Origin: Paludibacteraceae bacterium
Lineage (GTDB): Bacteria > Bacteroidota > Bacteroidia > Bacteroidales > Paludibacteraceae
Length of the DNA: 64,000 bases
Reading direction: 5' to 3'
Assembly (NCBI GenBank): GCA_017559505.1
Contig: JAFYSF010000025.1
Coordinates: 20,637 to 84,636 of the forward strand
Of the stretch, positions 7,483 to 40,917 are shown in pieces; the first letter of the stretch is position 1; every line of letters begins with the position of its first letter. The notes beneath the pieces are model-generated. The model searched no databases and was not told the origin of the DNA. It saw only the letters and a list, made by a program, of their open reading frames with translations. The position numbers and the translations under genes were made by a program.

Positions 7483-8331
7483 ATTATTATTTTCCGATTT
7501 CACGCTATTTTCACCATATTTTTGAGTGCAAATCATCAAAACCACACCTAAAAGAAACAATGGCACGCTCAACCACTGCCCCATATTCAACACCATATCA
7601 TGCTCAAAACCAACCTGAATCTCCTTCACAAACTCCACACAAAATCTAAACCCAGCTATCACCATCAATTGCAACGACAAATAAAATCCCGGCTTAACAC
7701 TCTCATATTTCAATCGCTTAAACAACCAAACTCCCACTCCAAACAGCATAAAAAAGAACAACGACTCATACAACTGAGCTGGATGACGAGGCAAATCATC
7801 TATTTCAGGGAAAACAAATGCCCACACCACATCCGTCGATGCACCAACAATCTCCGAATTCATCAAATTACCCAATCTTATAAAAGCCCCAGCCAATGCC
7901 GTCGCTATAGCCATCCAATCCATTATCGGCAATATCGCCAACTTCGACCTCCATCTAAACAACATCAATGCCAACATCAACCCCATCACAGCACCATGAC
8001 TTGCCAAACCATGGTATCCACTAAAGTAATAATTCCCCATTTCATCGACACCCACAGGCAAAAACATCTCTATCGGATGCGACAAAAAATAATCTGCTTC
8101 ATAGAATAAACAATGCCCCAATCTCGCACCCAAAAATATTCCAAAAAACGACCAAATTATCAAATTCTCAAACACCCCCTGCTCAATTCCAAACTCCTTA
8201 AATCTACCCCACACATACCATCCCGCCAATACCAAACCCAAAGCAAACAACACCCCGTACCACAACAAAGTGAAGCTCCCAACCGAAAAAATCACCGGAT
8301 TGGGCGACCATACAATCCAAAATAAATTCAT
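7480..8331 (-). CDS. lgt: prolipoprotein diacylglyceryl transferase
   Basis: 283 aa, polytopic, with GARLGHCLFYE and PRHPAQLYES motifs. Confidence 0.9.
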   Translation of the reverse strand: MNLFWIVWSPNPVIFSVGSFTLLWYGVLFALGLVLAGWYVWGRFKEFGIEQGVFENLIIWSFFGIFLGARLGHCLFYEADYFLSHPIEMFLPVGVDEMGNYYFSGYHGLASHGAVMGLMLALMLFRWRSKLAILPIMDWMAIATALAGAFIRLGNLMNSEIVGASTDVVWAFVFPEIDDLPRHPAQLYESLFFFMLFGVGVWLFKRLKYESVKPGFYLSLQLMVIAGFRFCVEFVKEIQVGFEHDMVLNMGQWLSVPLFLLGVVLMICTQKYGENSVKSENNN

Positions 8332-34205: not shown

Positions 34206-34739
34206 ATGACACTTACAGAACAACAATTCGACAAATCAGCGGCAGAATGCCGTTCGATATACGAAAAAAAATTGAAAGACTACGGGGCTGCATGGCGAAT
34301 CATGCGCCCTGCAAGTCTTACAGACCAAATATTTATTAAGGCTAATCGTATTCGCTCGTTGGAAATCAAAGGCACGTCGATGGTGAATGAGGGAATTCGT
34401 CCTGAATTGATTGGGATTATCAATTACTGCATTATCGCATTGATACAGTTGGAGTTGGGTTATGCAGAGACTGATGACCTCCCTGTTGAGCGTGCGCTTG
34501 AGATGTATGATAGATATATGCTTGAGGCTAAGAATTTGATGATTGCTAAAAATCATGATTATGATGAGGCTTGGCGTCAGATGCGTACACAATCATATAC
34601 TGACCTTATTCTCATGAAGATACATCGCACCAAACAAATCGAAGACAATAATGGAAAAACCCTTATTTCAGAAGGTGTGGATGCTAACTATTTCGACATG
34701 CTCAATTATGCTGTATTCTATATGATTCAGCAAGTTTAA
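34206..34739 (+). CDS. DUF1599 domain protein
   Basis: 177 aa, a duplicated helical module (KDYGAAWR...; HDYDEAWRQMR). The usual Bacteroidota neighbour of the next gene and tpiA. Confidence 0.65.
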   Translation: MTLTEQQFDKSAAECRSIYEKKLKDYGAAWRIMRPASLTDQIFIKANRIRSLEIKGTSMVNEGIRPELIGIINYCIIALIQLELGYAETDDLPVERALEMYDRYMLEAKNLMIAKNHDYDEAWRQMRTQSYTDLILMKIHRTKQIEDNNGKTLISEGVDANYFDMLNYAVFYMIQQV

Positions 34740-35904: not shown

Positions 35905-36654
35905 ATGAGAAAAAACATTGTAGCAGGCAACTGGAAAATGAATAAAAACCTGCAAGAAGGCGTAGCTTTGGCTGCTGAATTGAAAGAAAAAGTATCTAAT
36001 CCAAATTGTGATGTGATAATAGGCACTCCATTTATTCACCTTGCAACTGTGGCTGAATTGCTCAAAGATTCACCAATCGCTGTTGCTGCTGAAAACTGTG
36101 CCGACCACACATCTGGCGCATACACAGGCGAAGTTTCTGCCGAAATGGTAGCTTCGACAGGCGCAACTTACTGCATTATTGGTCACTCAGAACGTCGTAC
36201 ATACTATGGCGAAACATACGAAATCCTTCGCGAAAAAGTGCAATTGGCATTGGCTAACAACCTTCGCCCAATCTTCTGCATCGGCGAAGTGAAAGAAGAA
36301 CGTGAAGCAAACCGCCAAAACGAAGTTGTTAAAGCACAACTCGAAGGTTCGGTATTCAACCTTTCGGCTGAAGAATTTGGCAAACTCGTTATTGCTTACG
36401 AGCCAGTTTGGGCTATCGGCACAGGTCTTACTGCTACACCAGAACAAGCACAAGAAATCCACGCTTATATCCGTAGCCTTATCGCTGAAAAATATGGCAA
36501 CGAAGTGGCTGATAACACATCAATCCTCTATGGCGGTAGCTGCAATGCTAAAAATGCAGTAGGTCTATTCGCCAACCCAGATATTGATGGTGGTCTTATC
36601 GGTGGTGCATCACTCAAAGCTGACGATTTCTGCGCTATTATTAGTGCATTTTGA
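35905..36654 (+). CDS. tpiA: triosephosphate isomerase
   Basis: 249 aa with AGNWKMN, IGHSERR and [11 protein letters not shown]. Confidence 0.95.
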
Positions 36655-36671
36655 TTCGTAAATTTAATTAT

Positions 36672-36710
36672 AAACTCTCCATTAGGTATATGCCGAATGG
36701 AGAGTTTTTT
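36672..36710 (+). terminator. tpiA terminator; first copy of the CTCCATT...GAATGGAG hairpin
   Basis: 12-bp stem aaactctccatt/aatggagagttt with a 12-nt loop and a T-run. Confidence 0.75.
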
Positions 36711-36753
36711 GTTTTTTAACTTAATTTTATTTGCATAATTGGAATAAAAGCAT

Positions 36754-36761
36754 TATTTTTG
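36754..36761 (+). promoter_or_regulatory. candidate -7 box TATTTTTG
   Basis: 25 nt upstream of the ATG at 36786. Confidence 0.45.
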
Positions 36762-36785
36762 CAGTGCATATTAAAAATTAACAGT

Positions 36786-37016
36786 ATGACATCAAAAGAA
36801 AAAGAGTATCGGAAATTACATTTTGCTATTATGGTGATTGAAGCGAGCGCAAGAAAGCAAAATATTGAAAGCCGTGAGATGTATCGTCGTCTAAAACAAC
36901 AAGATTTAATACGTCTTCGTCTGTCTCGCCATTATGAAACATTACACACTCAAAGTCTTGATTGGGTGGTTGATGATACAATAGAAACTCTTCATAACTG
37001 GGAATCAGAAAATTAA
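36786..37016 (+). CDS. DUF3791 domain protein
   Basis: 76 aa from MTSKEKEYRKLHFAIMVIE. Small and helical, in the typical position upstream of DUF3990. Confidence 0.65.
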   Translation: MTSKEKEYRKLHFAIMVIEASARKQNIESREMYRRLKQQDLIRLRLSRHYETLHTQSLDWVVDDTIETLHNWESEN

Positions 37017-37023
37017 TAGTTAT

Positions 37024-37527
37024 ATGATTACACTCTATCATGGTTCAAATATTGAAGTTGTTGCTCCTTTTGCAAGGGTAGGACGTAAGAATTTAGATTT
37101 TGGTCAAGGTTTTTACTTGACTAAAATAAAACGTCAAGCAGAGGATTGGGCGACAGTTATCGCTAGTCGCAAAGGTCGTAATAGTGTCGGTGTTATCTCA
37201 GAGTTTAGTTTTGAAAAAGAGCAAGCGGTTAAAGATGGATTTCGGTTTAAAATATTTAATGTGTATGATATCGAGTGGTTAGATTTTGTTGTTAATTGTC
37301 GAAAAGGAAAAGATTTTGCATCAAAGTATGATGTTATTGAAGGAGGTGTTGCAAATGACAATGTTATTGATACTGTTGAAGATTATGAAAAAGGGATTAT
37401 TACAGCAGAGCAAGCATTAGGTCAATTGCAATATAAGAAGGTGAACCATCAAATTTGTATTCTTAATCAGAAAGTTATAGATGCATATTTGACTTTTGTT
37501 AAATCATATATTGTGGAGGAGAAGTGA
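37024..37527 (+). CDS. DUF3990 domain protein
   Basis: 167 aa with LYHGS...DFGQGFYLT...DVIEGGVANDNV, the characteristic DUF3990 motif pattern. Confidence 0.75.
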   Translation: MITLYHGSNIEVVAPFARVGRKNLDFGQGFYLTKIKRQAEDWATVIASRKGRNSVGVISEFSFEKEQAVKDGFRFKIFNVYDIEWLDFVVNCRKGKDFASKYDVIEGGVANDNVIDTVEDYEKGIITAEQALGQLQYKKVNHQICILNQKVIDAYLTFVKSYIVEEK

Positions 37528-37528
37528 T

Positions 37529-37729
37529 ATGCGTGATTCTGTATTATGGCGCAAACAAAGTTTTATTGTTATTTTGCTCGCAAAAAGGCTTAGTATAGAC
37601 GTTGATAGAGCTTTGGATTTGTATTATTCAACAGAAACAGCTCGTCAATTATCCGATGCAAAAACAAAGTTATATTTAATGAGTGACCAATATATAGTAG
37701 ATAATATTATTTCTGAACTAAATAAATAA
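37529..37729 (+). CDS. DUF3791 domain protein (second copy)
   Basis: ATG 37529, 1 nt after the DUF3990 stop. 66 aa, MRDSVLWRKQSFIVILLAKRL. Confidence 0.6.
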   Translation: MRDSVLWRKQSFIVILLAKRLSIDVDRALDLYYSTETARQLSDAKTKLYLMSDQYIVDNIISELNK

Positions 37730-37740
37730 GAATAATTAAA

Positions 37741-37780
37741 AAAATCTTCATTCGCATTATTGGTGAATGGAGATTTTTTT
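37741..37780 (+). terminator. terminator hairpin, cassette copy 2
   Basis: Stem atcttcattc/gaatggagat (one U-G pair) followed by TTTTTTT. About 90% identical to 39218-39263. Confidence 0.7.
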
Positions 37781-37781
37781 A

Positions 37782-37789
37782 TATCTTTG
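37782..37789 (+). promoter_or_regulatory. candidate -7 box TATCTTTG, fused to the preceding terminator
   Basis: Exact motif, 84 nt upstream of the ATG at 37873. Confidence 0.5.
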
Positions 37790-37790
37790 C

Positions 37791-37873
37791 ATCGAAAATG
37801 TGATTTTTTACACATAAAAACATCTAAAAATGTGATTTTTTCAAACAAAAGACAACTAAAAATGTGATTTTTA
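37791..37873 (+). repeat. 2.6 tandem copies of a 32-bp unit, each containing AAAATGTGATTTTT
   Basis: ATGTGA occurs at 37798, 37830 and 37862 (32-nt spacing). The third unit runs into the CDS start. Confidence 0.85.
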
Positions 37874-39210
37874 TGCTTAAACGTAAGATTGACAACTTTT
37901 TGGCAGAATGGAAGCAAAAAAAGGATAAAAAACCTCTTATAGTAAAAGGAGCTCGTCAAATAGGCAAAACTGCGTCTATTGAACATTTTGCTAAAAATAA
38001 TTATGTCCATATTGTAGAAATAAACTTTGCATTACAACCAAAGTTCAAGCGTATTTTTGATGATGGTTTTGAAGTTGATATAATACTTAAGAATATTTCG
38101 AGAATAGATCCATCTTTAGTTTTTTCTCCCGGCGAAACATTATTATTTTTTGATGAGTTACAAGATTGTCCAAATTGCGCTACAAGTTTGAAGTCGTTTA
38201 AATTGGATGGTCGTTATGATGTCATATGTTCTGGCTCGTTGATGGGACTTTATTATCAACAAATAGAATCTAATAGTGTAGGTTATAAAGAAGATTATGA
38301 AATGTATTCTCTTGATTTCGAGGAATTTTTGTGGGCTAGTGGTTATGGAGATGATTTTATTGATGAACTATATGATAGTATGATTAATCTACAACCTCTA
38401 TCATCAATTACATTTGATGTTTTGAGTTCGATTTTTCGTGATTATATGATTATTGGAGGTATGCCTGAGGTGGTTAATCGTTATGCTGAAACTAAACAAT
38501 TTTCAGGAACACTTCAATTACAGCAACAACTTTTACGAGATTATGAAGAGGATATAACAAAGTATGCATCTGGATTTGATAAAGCAAAAGTATTAGCAGT
38601 TTATCGTCATATATCTACATTTCTTGCACAAGAGAATAAAAAATTTCAGGTAACCAAGATTGCACGTGGAGCTCGTAATCGCGAATATATGGGAGCGGTA
38701 GAGTGGTTGTCTAATGCAGGGATTGTAAATGTTTGCTATTGCATAGCTACATTAGAATTACCTCTGAAAGGTAATTACGACCCAAAACAATATAAACTTT
38801 ATTATGGTGATACTGGATTGTTGATTGCTTCGCTTGACGATGAAGCACAAGATGATTTACGTTCGAATAATAACTTTGGAACATATAAGGGCGCAATTTA
38901 TGAAAATATAGTCGCTGATATGTTGGTCAAGCAGGGTTATGATTTGTATTATTATAACAACAATTCTCCAAGTTTAGAAATGGATTTTTTTGTGAGAGAT
39001 ACTAATTCGCTTATACCTATTGAAGTTAAAGCAAATAATAATGCAACAGTTTCACTTAATCGCTTAATTGATAGTGATGCAAATAAATATTCTGACATTC
39101 GCTATGGCATAAAACTTTGTAATAACAATATAGGTTTTAATGGTAAATTTTATACTTTTCCTTACTCTTTGACCTTTTTGCTTAAGCGTTTTCTTAAAAA
39201 CAAAAAATAA
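37873..39210 (+). CDS. AAA_14 ATPase with C-terminal DUF4143 (PD-(D/E)xK-like) domain
   Basis: 445 aa from MLKRKIDNF. Walker A is GARQIGKT and Walker B is LLFFDELQ. The C-terminal EMDFFV...IPIEVKA is a nuclease-like D..E.K motif. Confidence 0.8.
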   Translation: MLKRKIDNFLAEWKQKKDKKPLIVKGARQIGKTASIEHFAKNNYVHIVEINFALQPKFKRIFDDGFEVDIILKNISRIDPSLVFSPGETLLFFDELQDCPNCATSLKSFKLDGRYDVICSGSLMGLYYQQIESNSVGYKEDYEMYSLDFEEFLWASGYGDDFIDELYDSMINLQPLSSITFDVLSSIFRDYMIIGGMPEVVNRYAETKQFSGTLQLQQQLLRDYEEDITKYASGFDKAKVLAVYRHISTFLAQENKKFQVTKIARGARNREYMGAVEWLSNAGIVNVCYCIATLELPLKGNYDPKQYKLYYGDTGLLIASLDDEAQDDLRSNNNFGTYKGAIYENIVADMLVKQGYDLYYYNNNSPSLEMDFFVRDTNSLIPIEVKANNNATVSLNRLIDSDANKYSDIRYGIKLCNNNIGFNGKFYTFPYSLTFLLKRFLKNKK

Positions 39211-39217
39211 ATAATTC

Positions 39218-39263
39218 AAAAAAATCTCCATTCGCATTATTATTGCCGAATGGAGATTTTTTT
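39218..39263 (+). terminator. terminator hairpin, cassette copy 3
   Basis: Perfect 14-bp stem aaaatctccattcg/cgaatggagatttt with a 12-nt loop. Confidence 0.75.
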
Positions 39264-39264
39264 A

Positions 39265-39272
39265 TACCTTTG
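39265..39272 (+). promoter_or_regulatory. candidate -7 box TACCTTTG, fused to the preceding terminator
   Basis: 37 nt upstream of the ATG at 39309. Confidence 0.5.
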
Positions 39273-39308
39273 CGTTCAGAAATACTAATTTTTAAATCTA
39301 ATTTAGTT

Positions 39309-40382
39309 ATGAAAATCATTAATGTTGATGCACCTAAGCATCTTTTAAAAAAAATTGAACACAACAGAATTTATGATTTTATTCTTGATGTAGTTCGACC
39401 ATTAGAGTGTTGTTATTACGAACATTTTTCTCGTCATAGCTACCCATTATCTCATTATCATCACTATCACTCATGTCATTTTAATGCTTATGAAAGCATA
39501 GCAATTCTGTTACATACAATGCCGATTTTTCTTCGTGATTCAGCATCTCGAAGCCGTGATGATAATGCTATTATTGACCCATTGGGTGCATATTTTTCTA
39601 ACCGAAAAAGTGATAGTGCGTACATTGAGTTGTATTTGTCTAACATTGATGATGAGGCTAAAAATGATGAACATTTTAAATGGTTATTCACAAAAGTTTT
39701 AATACACGAGTTGGCTCATGCTACTATGGATGTTTGGGATGAAAAAGTGTCTTATCATACTGAATTTGGTAGATGGCGTGAAGAATCAATGGCAAATGCT
39801 ATAGCCCTTAGAATAATAAAAGAATATGCTGACCAAGATTTCTATGATTATGCTAAAATATTTATGCAATCACAACCTGCAGAATATGCACTCGGTGTAT
39901 TGATGGTAGATTTAGAATATTGGGATTTTAGTGATGTTGTACGTTCTAAATATCATGGGGTTAATCTTGATTTACAAAAAGAATGGCTTAATTATGTAAA
40001 AGGATCTCCAAATTTGGATGGATTAAAAACATGGAATGATTTATTATCTAGAGCTGATGTATATTATTTCCAATGTAAATATTATACTTCAGAAGAAGAT
40101 CTTGTATATGATATTGTAAACGAGGTTCTTTCTGATTATGAAGCTAACAATGGAGAAAATATGGATTATGCGAAATTTAGTTCTTTATTCCCTTGTATCG
40201 AAATGAGTGAAGACGAAATGTCGTATGAACCAGCTAACAAAGTAGAAGGTAATGATAGTTATGAAACCAAAATAGAACTAAAAGACGGTGATTATTATTT
40301 ATATGACTGTTGGACTAACAAAGAACTTCATGAGTTTATAAAAAATGTAAAAGTAGATTTAAAAGAGTTTACTAATTGGTAG
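39309..40382 (+). CDS. hypothetical protein with HExxH zinc-metallopeptidase motif
   Basis: 357 aa from MKIINVDAPK (the ORF-track start lies inside the terminator). VLIHELAHATMD is followed by EESMANA ~24 aa downstream (gluzincin-like spacing). The N-terminus has a Cys/His-rich patch CCYYEHFSRHSYPLSHYHHYHSCH. Confidence 0.5.
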   Translation: MKIINVDAPKHLLKKIEHNRIYDFILDVVRPLECCYYEHFSRHSYPLSHYHHYHSCHFNAYESIAILLHTMPIFLRDSASRSRDDNAIIDPLGAYFSNRKSDSAYIELYLSNIDDEAKNDEHFKWLFTKVLIHELAHATMDVWDEKVSYHTEFGRWREESMANAIALRIIKEYADQDFYDYAKIFMQSQPAEYALGVLMVDLEYWDFSDVVRSKYHGVNLDLQKEWLNYVKGSPNLDGLKTWNDLLSRADVYYFQCKYYTSEEDLVYDIVNEVLSDYEANNGENMDYAKFSSLFPCIEMSEDEMSYEPANKVEGNDSYETKIELKDGDYYLYDCWTNKELHEFIKNVKVDLKEFTNW

Positions 40383-40459
40383 TTTCTGCTCAATGTGGAT
40401 AATAAAACATACAAAGTTGCAATGTAATTTTAACCCTATATAAATACCATCGTTGCTAT

Positions 40460-40558
40460 GTGTCAGTCTTCTTCGATGAAGGTTGCTTGAAGGTTGCTTA
40501 CAGATAAGGAAAGGTTTTATCTTATCCATCAGCAAAGTACAAGCAACCTTTAAGCAAG
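40460..40558 (+). repeat. copy 3 of the GTGTCAGTCTTC... element core, extended into a long hairpin
   Basis: The core is followed by a 15-bp stem (40485-40499 with 40541-55, one G-U pair) that encloses an inner gataag/cttatc hairpin. Confidence 0.8.
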
Positions 40559-40917
40559 AAAACAGCCATCTTTACACCCTACATTTACAAAGTCTGCAAA
40601 ACAAATAAAATCCACTTGACCAAGTTTATTTTCCTAAAAAATAGACAATTTTTCTACTTTTTTCCTAAATAAATAGACGAACTTTGCAATTGCAAAGTTG
40701 CAAAGTTAATCTAAAGTTCTGATTATTAAAGCTAAAGCCTCTTTGCATTGTAATCAATCCTAATAAATATTTAGCATGTAACTCAAAGAATACCACCGTG
40801 TTGTCTTAATTTTATAAACTTTGTAAACTTTGCAACTCCTTATAAGCAAAAAATCTTATGTTAATATCTTGTTAATATTTTTAATAAAAAACAGCGTGGA
40901 ACATTCGAAAAAAAATG

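Follow-up and report, generated by a model that had tools for sequence, protein, structure and literature searches.

A three-gene DUF3791-DUF3990-DUF3791 cassette of a Paludibacteraceae bacterium matches the candidate defence system PDC-M13 and encodes a predicted ADP-ribosyltransferase-fold protein

Do three small, tightly packed genes in a Paludibacteraceae genome encode a toxin together with its partners, and if so, what would such a set be for? The genes lie in a 64,000-nt stretch of contig JAFYSF010000025.1 (assembly GCA_017559505.1, positions 20,637 to 84,636), which we call the window and to whose first letter all window coordinates refer. An earlier note, made from the letters of this DNA, had proposed a possible ADP-ribosyltransferase (ART)-like toxin flanked by two small partner proteins. 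On the matches of its three genes, the trio is a plain member of the catalogued candidate system PDC-M13 and not a new kind of system. Its central protein is confidently modelled with an ART fold, and its three genes are found together far beyond chance.

The trio belongs to a catalogued candidate system

The three open reading frames (ORFs), A, B and C, are co-directional and stand between tpiA (35905-36654) and a gene for an ATPase with AAA_14 and DUF4143 domains:

36786-37016, plus strand: gene A, 76 aa, DUF3791, PDC-M13A type, all-helical, with a conserved LHTQS motif
37024-37527, plus strand: gene B, 167 aa, DUF3990, predicted ART fold, with predicted active site H6, Y31 and D103 and a GGVAND motif at 107-112
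37529-37729, plus strand: gene C, 66 aa, divergent DUF3791-like, PDC-M13C type, with a conserved LMSD motif

The ORF coordinates leave 7 nt between A and B and 1 nt between B and C, which bears out the spacing reported in the earlier note. Gene A scores above the gathering threshold of Pfam DUF3791 (PF12668; E 1.2e-13, 51.3 bits, cut-off 25), while gene B matches Pfam DUF3990 (PF13151) with E 3e-46 (157.3 bits, cut-off 32.2), its residues 2-155 aligning with profile positions 1-149 of 152. Gene C itself has no Pfam match even at E 10, and a BLASTP comparison of A with C found nothing. Some of the 346 homologues of C are named "DUF3791 domain-containing protein" by NCBI, and 23 of 33 C orthologues match Pfam DUF3791 at E<0.1 (best 2.2e-7). 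An hhalign alignment of 73 A-type with 73 C-type proteins gave 76% probability and E 2e-5 over 52 in-register columns. Taken together, the Pfam matches of the C orthologues and the profile alignment identify C as a probable divergent DUF3791 paralogue of A. The earlier description of two DUF3791 proteins flanking B is therefore sound for A, by its Pfam match and its helical model, and holds for C by way of its orthologues and profile, not by a Pfam match of its own. The most conserved patches of the two proteins align with each other, LHTQS of A (53-57) with LMSD of C (50-53), and this patch would be a candidate contact surface.

In PADLOC-DB, A matches PDC-M13A (4.2e-14), B matches PDC-M13B (5.6e-51) and C matches PDC-M13C (4.7e-9). 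PDC-M13 comprises the same three adjacent, co-directional small genes, each matching its component model, and nothing substantive differs in the window. B additionally matches the A models of PDC-M10 and PDC-M42 (PDC-M10A and PDC-M42A), which are related two-gene candidates, and models of these three candidates are the only ones listed for the trio. Elsewhere, NCBIfam holds no model for A, B or C, and PHROGs gave one weak match only, for B. The acronym PDC stands for "phage defence candidates", nominated by homologues embedded in BREX, DISARM or type I restriction-modification (R-M) systems; PADLOC took these entries in with later study in view, and the main text of that work does not describe PDC-M13 (Payne et al., bioRxiv 10.1101/2024.01.29.577857). 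PDC-M13 has been recorded 3,324 times in 6,530 rumen genomes (PMC13356809).

Gene B is modelled as an ART fold with a probable H-Y-D triad

The AlphaFold2 model of B was built on an alignment of 41 orthologues and reached a pLDDT of 94.5 and a pTM of 0.88. Searched against the PDB with Foldseek, it retrieved, in this order, RES (P. putida Xre-RES; 9r35_A, 6gw6), ParT (ParST; 6d0i, 6d0h), MbcT (M. tuberculosis MbcTA; 6fkg) and Arr, followed by PARP1, tankyrases and pertussis-like toxins, the entries given being the best ones. All of these are ART-fold proteins, and the matches had probabilities up to 0.99 and TM about 0.5. In a viral structure library, the model matched a DUF3990-like protein (1.3e-11) and then ART-PolyVal domains (1.3e-4). 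The first ~50 residues of B, which include the H and Y motifs, also give a weak, sub-threshold ART-PolyVal match in Pfam (E 1.8e-3). DUF3990 sits in Pfam's ART clan (PMC7955679). The earlier note had tentatively grouped DUF3990 with ADP-ribosyl-fold families and had asked for a structural search of the model; the grouping was right, as seen from the clan placement and the fold matches, and the search put ART folds at the top of the PDB list. The substrates of the nearest folds differ, being nicotinamide adenine dinucleotide (NAD+) itself for RES and MbcT, a protein for ParT and a small molecule for Arr. A nucleic-acid target was also considered from protein charge and found no support, B being acidic.

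The YHGS (5-8), GFYLT (29-33) and IEGGV (105-109) motifs, which had been read as an H-Y-E triad, are all present in B. We assessed their conservation across the wider family in 100 DUF3990 representatives clustered at 50% identity. H6 (LYHGS, strand 2-8) is conserved in 91% of these and Y31 (GxGFYLT, strand 30-33) in 96%, so that two members of the proposed triad stand. The third does not: E106 of IEGGV is a glutamate in 33 of the 41 close orthologues, with I, D, T or A otherwise, and in 42/100 representatives, with Ile in 31/100, and this poor conservation speaks against E106 as the catalytic Glu. D103, three residues before E106 and at the start of strand 104-107, is instead 98% conserved. 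The catalytic acid of H-Y-E enzymes lies at the start of that strand, and an H-Y-D triad has been reported for Arr. Given the conservation of D103 and its place at the strand start, the triad of B is more likely H6-Y31-D103 (H-Y-D) than H-Y-E.

Conservation of 90-100% among the representatives extends to H6, G7, D25-F26-G27, F30-Y31, T33, Q38, W85, R93, D103, G107, A110, D112 and Q143. D25, Q38, W85, R93 and Q143 fall outside the classical triad, as does a second near-invariant block, G107-G-V-A110-N-D112 (GGVAND).

The three genes occur together and probably form one complex

We examined 80 genome loci with a relative of B, searching the flanking ORFs with A and C profiles. The upstream ORF was A-type in 73/76 loci and the downstream ORF C-type in 73-74/77. 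A permissive re-search recovered most of the apparent exceptions and placed both partners beside about 74 of 76 intact B genes (~97%), leaving partner loss only in L055, which has no A, and L056, which has neither A nor C. The association of the trio is far beyond chance. Across the 80 loci, the hosts are Bacteroidales, Fibrobacter, Kiritimatiellia, Clostridia, one Spirochaetia genome and one metagenome-assembled genome labelled Akkermansia, and in related loci the trio genes frequently overlap by 4 nt.

The genes also occur in permuted and fused forms. The order is B-C-A in L080 and again on a Moraxella osloensis plasmid (L175, 3457-6605), where each gene overlaps the next by 4 nt and the three split a type I R-M operon, with hsdM on one side and hsdS on the other. 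On the conjugative plasmid pBF9343 of the standard laboratory strain B. fragilis NCTC 9343 (L174, 2055-2980), a 149-aa C~A fusion is encoded 5' of the DUF3990 gene and overlaps it, and immediately downstream of this C~A-B pair come a small ORF and a gene of the zeta-toxin family. Natural B~C fusions keep the same gene order, with C profile scores down to 3.5e-26. Such permutations and fusions are a classical signature of one complex, and they argue for A, B and C forming one.

Decay of B is consistent with a toxin held by its partners

Nineteen key residues of B are identical in 68 of 76 full-length orthologues, and the remaining changes are conservative except in L055 and L056. The changes in these two, V109A, A110V and D112H in L055 (5986-6498) and V109A and A110L in L056 (5995-6492), all fall in GGVAND. 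The only intact DUF3990 genes lacking a partner or partners are therefore the only two of 76 with non-conservative GGVAND changes. The two genomes are related, and the pattern thus amounts to at most two events. We also note that the two B genes occupy different positions relative to M48 peptidase and LPG-synthase genes in these genomes.

Five of the 80 B genes are pseudogenes, and an early stop in B with A and C intact is seen in L033 (codon 5) and L043 (codon 28). Taken as a whole, the decay patterns are such as a harmful enzyme dependent on its partners would leave, but they do not prove that B is one. In type VI secretion system (T6SS) Rhs proteins, DUF3990 occupies the C-terminal toxin position, as in Serratia Rhs5 and Enterobacter RhsA (PMC4524185, PMC10763514).

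We consider it somewhat probable that the trio works as a tripartite toxin/neutraliser module, used for abortive infection, for element addiction or for both. B would be a stand-alone, NAD+-using enzyme of the ART superfamily, toxic when free by analogy with its structural relatives and the Rhs toxin ends, and its activity would likely consist in ADP-ribosylating an essential target or in destroying NAD+. A and C would act jointly, probably as a C-A pair bound to B, and would hold B inactive. A trigger, either phage infection or the loss of the cassette or plasmid, would release B, with abortive infection or addiction as the outcome. The data show the gene structure, family membership, ART fold, residue conservation, joint occurrence of all three genes, fusions, mobility and empty site; we infer from them that B uses NAD+ and is toxic, that A and C neutralise it, what the trigger is and that the trio takes part in defence.

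Several observations weigh against a toxin/neutraliser module. The Foldseek E-values of B against the PDB are marginal (1.6e-3 to about 1), and searches of the PDB sequences with the A, B and C sequences and the B profile returned chance-level matches only. The AlphaFold2 model of A (pLDDT 95, five helices) has no significant match in the PDB (best E 4.3), and Pfam gives no helix-turn-helix (HTH), ribbon-helix-helix or AbrB match in A or C. Fusion of C to B would be unusual for a labile antitoxin, and an autoinhibitory or sensor domain would account for the B~C fusion at least as well as an antidote would, and perhaps better. The mildly acidic character of B (median pI 5.5) lends no support to a nucleic-acid target, most neighbours of the trio are housekeeping and not defence genes, and the correlation seen in L055 and L056 rests on two related genomes. 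Moreover, the literature searched yielded no experiment on a PDC-M13 member. The earlier statement that the function of the trio has not been shown experimentally agrees with this, but needs to be supplemented by the fact that the trio is catalogued as PDC-M13. Literature searches for PF13151 and PF12668 returned nothing, and DUF3791 appeared only in an unrelated context. As the DUF3791 proteins show no DNA-binding domain, classical type II autoregulation is not evident.

Comparison with known ART systems and a possible sensor role of A and C

The RES-Xre, ParST and MbcTA systems provide the best structural matches of B, and their toxins are likewise small stand-alone ART folds encoded beside a small neutralising protein. 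RES, ParT and MbcT toxins act on NAD+ or ADP-ribosylate an essential enzyme. Unlike these toxins, B has no RES match in Pfam, carries PARP-like H..Y signatures instead of R-E-S and is accompanied by two partners with no Xre or DUF2384 match in Pfam; the likeness is at the level of the fold only. A kinship of DUF3791 with the ParS, MbcA or Xre antitoxins was also considered and was dropped after the PDB search returned nothing below E 4.3.

The fold of B also matches the ART-PolyVal domains found in polyvalent proteins of phages and conjugative elements, as well as PARP catalytic domains, and its HGS and GFY (G-x-G-F-Y) motifs resemble PARP signatures. B differs from these domains in being a stand-alone protein of 167 aa, in its own GGVAND motif and in having Asp, not Glu, at the predicted catalytic strand. 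The Rhs T6SS effectors Serratia Rhs5 and Enterobacter RhsA contain the same DUF3990 Pfam domain, there in toxin position, whereas in the trio DUF3990 fills B (2-155 of 167) and no Rhs, PAAR or other delivery part is present. As a whole-protein domain lacking a delivery part, B would act inside the producing cell.

A three-gene comparison is offered by CmdTAC (PD-T4-9), an ART toxin/antitoxin/chaperone defence system that acts by abortive infection (PMC11618068). Both systems combine an ART effector with two small accessory proteins. In contrast to CmdTAC, B does not match CmdT among the PADLOC matches listed, the gene order differs, and A and C are mutual paralogues and not an antitoxin and a SecB-like chaperone, with no SecB-like match in Pfam.

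CmdTAC also bears on the main alternative, in which A and C are sensor, adaptor or activating subunits and B, idle in the resting state, becomes active upon binding of a phage product to the DUF3791 pair. We regard this as unlikely, and give similarly little weight to its variant that assigns an autoinhibitory or sensing role above all to C, as in fused toxin-antitoxin defence proteins. An author correction describes CmdT made alone as not highly toxic and CmdT made together with CmdA as severely affecting cells (PMC11445053); simple toxin/antidote logic would therefore not be universal for ART modules. Natural B~C fusions in unchanged gene order, the constant retention of both paralogues, the existence of C~A fusions, and partners that are unlike known antitoxins and lack an HTH speak for the sensor alternative. 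The decay data argue the other way, since damage to conserved motifs is confined to B genes lacking partners and nonsense mutations occur in B where A and C are intact, both of which would be expected if free B were harmful.

The cassette is accessory and mobile

The toxin/neutraliser module that we favour leaves room for phage defence and for addiction, and the genomic setting of the trio bears on both. Three signals accompany the operon:

36672-36710, plus strand: hairpin terminator 3' of tpiA, an inverted repeat and the first of three copies of one family
36754-36761, plus strand: TATTTTTG, putative -7 promoter box, fitting TAnnTTTG and lying 25 nt 5' of the start of gene A
37737-37781, plus strand: hairpin terminator 3' of gene C, a 19-pair stem followed by a T-run (terminator scan, repeats), the second copy of the family

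Two hairpin terminators thus bracket the operon, one after tpiA and one after C. TAnnTTTG is the -7 promoter consensus of Bacteroidota, and TATTTTTG may act as the promoter box of gene A.

A metagenome contig whose tpiA is 96-97% identical (L082) carries the order DUF1599-MauE-tpiA, then 208 nt, then GT9-ParA, and so represents an empty site, with a single hairpin terminator between tpiA and GT9 (7747-7960). In the window, about 4.2 kb (36655-40860) is inserted between tpiA and GT9, made up of the trio, a PDC-S01 gene and a gene for an HExxH protein. Hairpins of one family (arms AAAAAATCTCCATTC and GAATGGAGATTTTTT) follow tpiA (36672-36710), the trio (37737-37781) and PDC-S01 (39218-39263). 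The rest of the window contains none, and the 6 half-sites compare with an expectation of 0.2. An 80-nt direct repeat (37710-37790 and 39190-39273) flanks PDC-S01 and takes in the second and third of these hairpins. In L001, which holds the nearest orthologous trio, the same hairpin type stands on both sides of it.

More generally, the trio lies between direct repeats of 40-230 nt in 14/53 loci, as against 1/53 in a shifted control; these loci include L002, L007, L034, L035, L001, L012, L014, L062, L045 and L071. The repeats differ in sequence between genomes and often include the terminator hairpin, and there is no recombinase within the cassette. The repeats suggest either that insertion duplicates a long stretch of the target or that site-specific recombination is provided in trans.

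The neighbours of the trio are essentially unrelated across genomes (99 clusters among 121 proteins), which rules out a conserved fourth gene or a fixed neighbourhood. The commonest neighbour is PDC-S01, in 6-7 of the 121, which is also a neighbour in the window. Relatives of B occur in 85 plasmid records (28 of them conjugative) and 4 phage records, and the full trio is present on 5 IMG/VR viral contigs; the metagenomes that hold the locus are all gut DNA metagenomes, and no RNA runs are among them. Given the empty site, the unrelated neighbours and the plasmid, phage and viral relatives, the cassette is accessory and horizontally mobile.

Mobility raises the question of whether the trio could be a plasmid or mobile-element addiction module, or a selfish toxin-antitoxin system, with no role in phage defence. 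The plasmid and conjugative plasmid records would suit such a role, as would the pBF9343 relative next to a zeta-toxin gene of toxin-antitoxin type, the mostly housekeeping neighbours on chromosomes, and the flanking direct repeats and empty site, which show that the cassette itself moves. On the Moraxella plasmid, however, the genes sit within a type I R-M operon, which is the kind of embedding for which PADLOC nominated the candidate; in addition, PDC-S01 is over-represented as a neighbour, and addiction and defence are compatible with each other. We consider a role in addiction to the exclusion of defence quite improbable. Very improbable, finally, is a non-toxic B, either an Arr-like small-molecule ART or an enzyme acting on ADP-ribose or RNA 2'-phosphate with the small proteins as accessories: Arr is among the fold matches with the highest local identity (24% over 67 columns), the triad is probably H-Y-D as in Arr and B is acidic, but the Arr match spans the N-terminal third only (TM 0.21), and the obligate pairing with two partners, the Rhs toxin context, the R-M embedding and the decay in the absence of partners point to a conflict module.

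A broader reading would join the toxin/neutraliser module and the mobility data, with the trio as both a recombinase-less mobile cassette, like PDC-S01, and a new class of tripartite abortive-infection system; as a whole this appears rather unlikely. Within it, the cassette may enter at terminator hairpins, or next to them, 3' of housekeeping genes, leaving target repeats of ~40-230 nt, and small, hairpin-separated arrays of defence cassettes may build up, as between tpiA and GT9. The H-Y-D ART may then be restrained by two paralogous helical proteins, which would pair as a heterodimer and also serve as the phage sensor.

Implications for the PDC-M13 family

PDC-M13 is among the most abundant candidate defence loci of rumen and gut Bacteroidales. 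The window contains one ordinary instance of this catalogued cassette, and it is the family that is worthwhile as an experimental target. Handles for experiment are the probable H6-Y31-D103 set, with E106 predicted to be dispensable, and the GGVAND block, which decays upon partner loss; plasmid pBF9343 of B. fragilis NCTC 9343 provides a tractable relative. If B is an active ART, finding its target would extend the ART-based toxin and defence systems by a new branch, and the DUF3791 pair would represent a new kind of neutraliser or sensor.

Neighbouring genes

The two other units of the insertion are the following:

37864-39210, probable ATG at 37873: PDC-S01 gene, encoding the AAA_14 and DUF4143 ATPase (PADLOC PDC-S01, E 4e-152)
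39243-40382, start probably near 39309: gene for an HExxH protein (LIHELAHAT) of 357-379 aa, the third insertion unit, with a faint Zincin_1 match

The one assay of PDC-S01, made in E. coli B, did not place it among the protecting systems. Upstream of the PDC-S01 gene in the window, at 37795-37872, there are three copies of AAAATGTGATTTTT with 32-nt spacing. Beyond the faint Zincin_1 match, the HExxH protein has no family match in Pfam, NCBIfam, PADLOC or PHROGs, and it is a possible further conflict gene.

On the other side of the trio, upstream of the MauE/DoxX gene and tpiA, a gene at 34206-34739 encodes two copies of the DUF1599 domain ("nucleotide modification associated domain 1"). The order DUF1599-MauE-tpiA is conserved in most related contigs, which places these genes in the core genome, outside the insertion.

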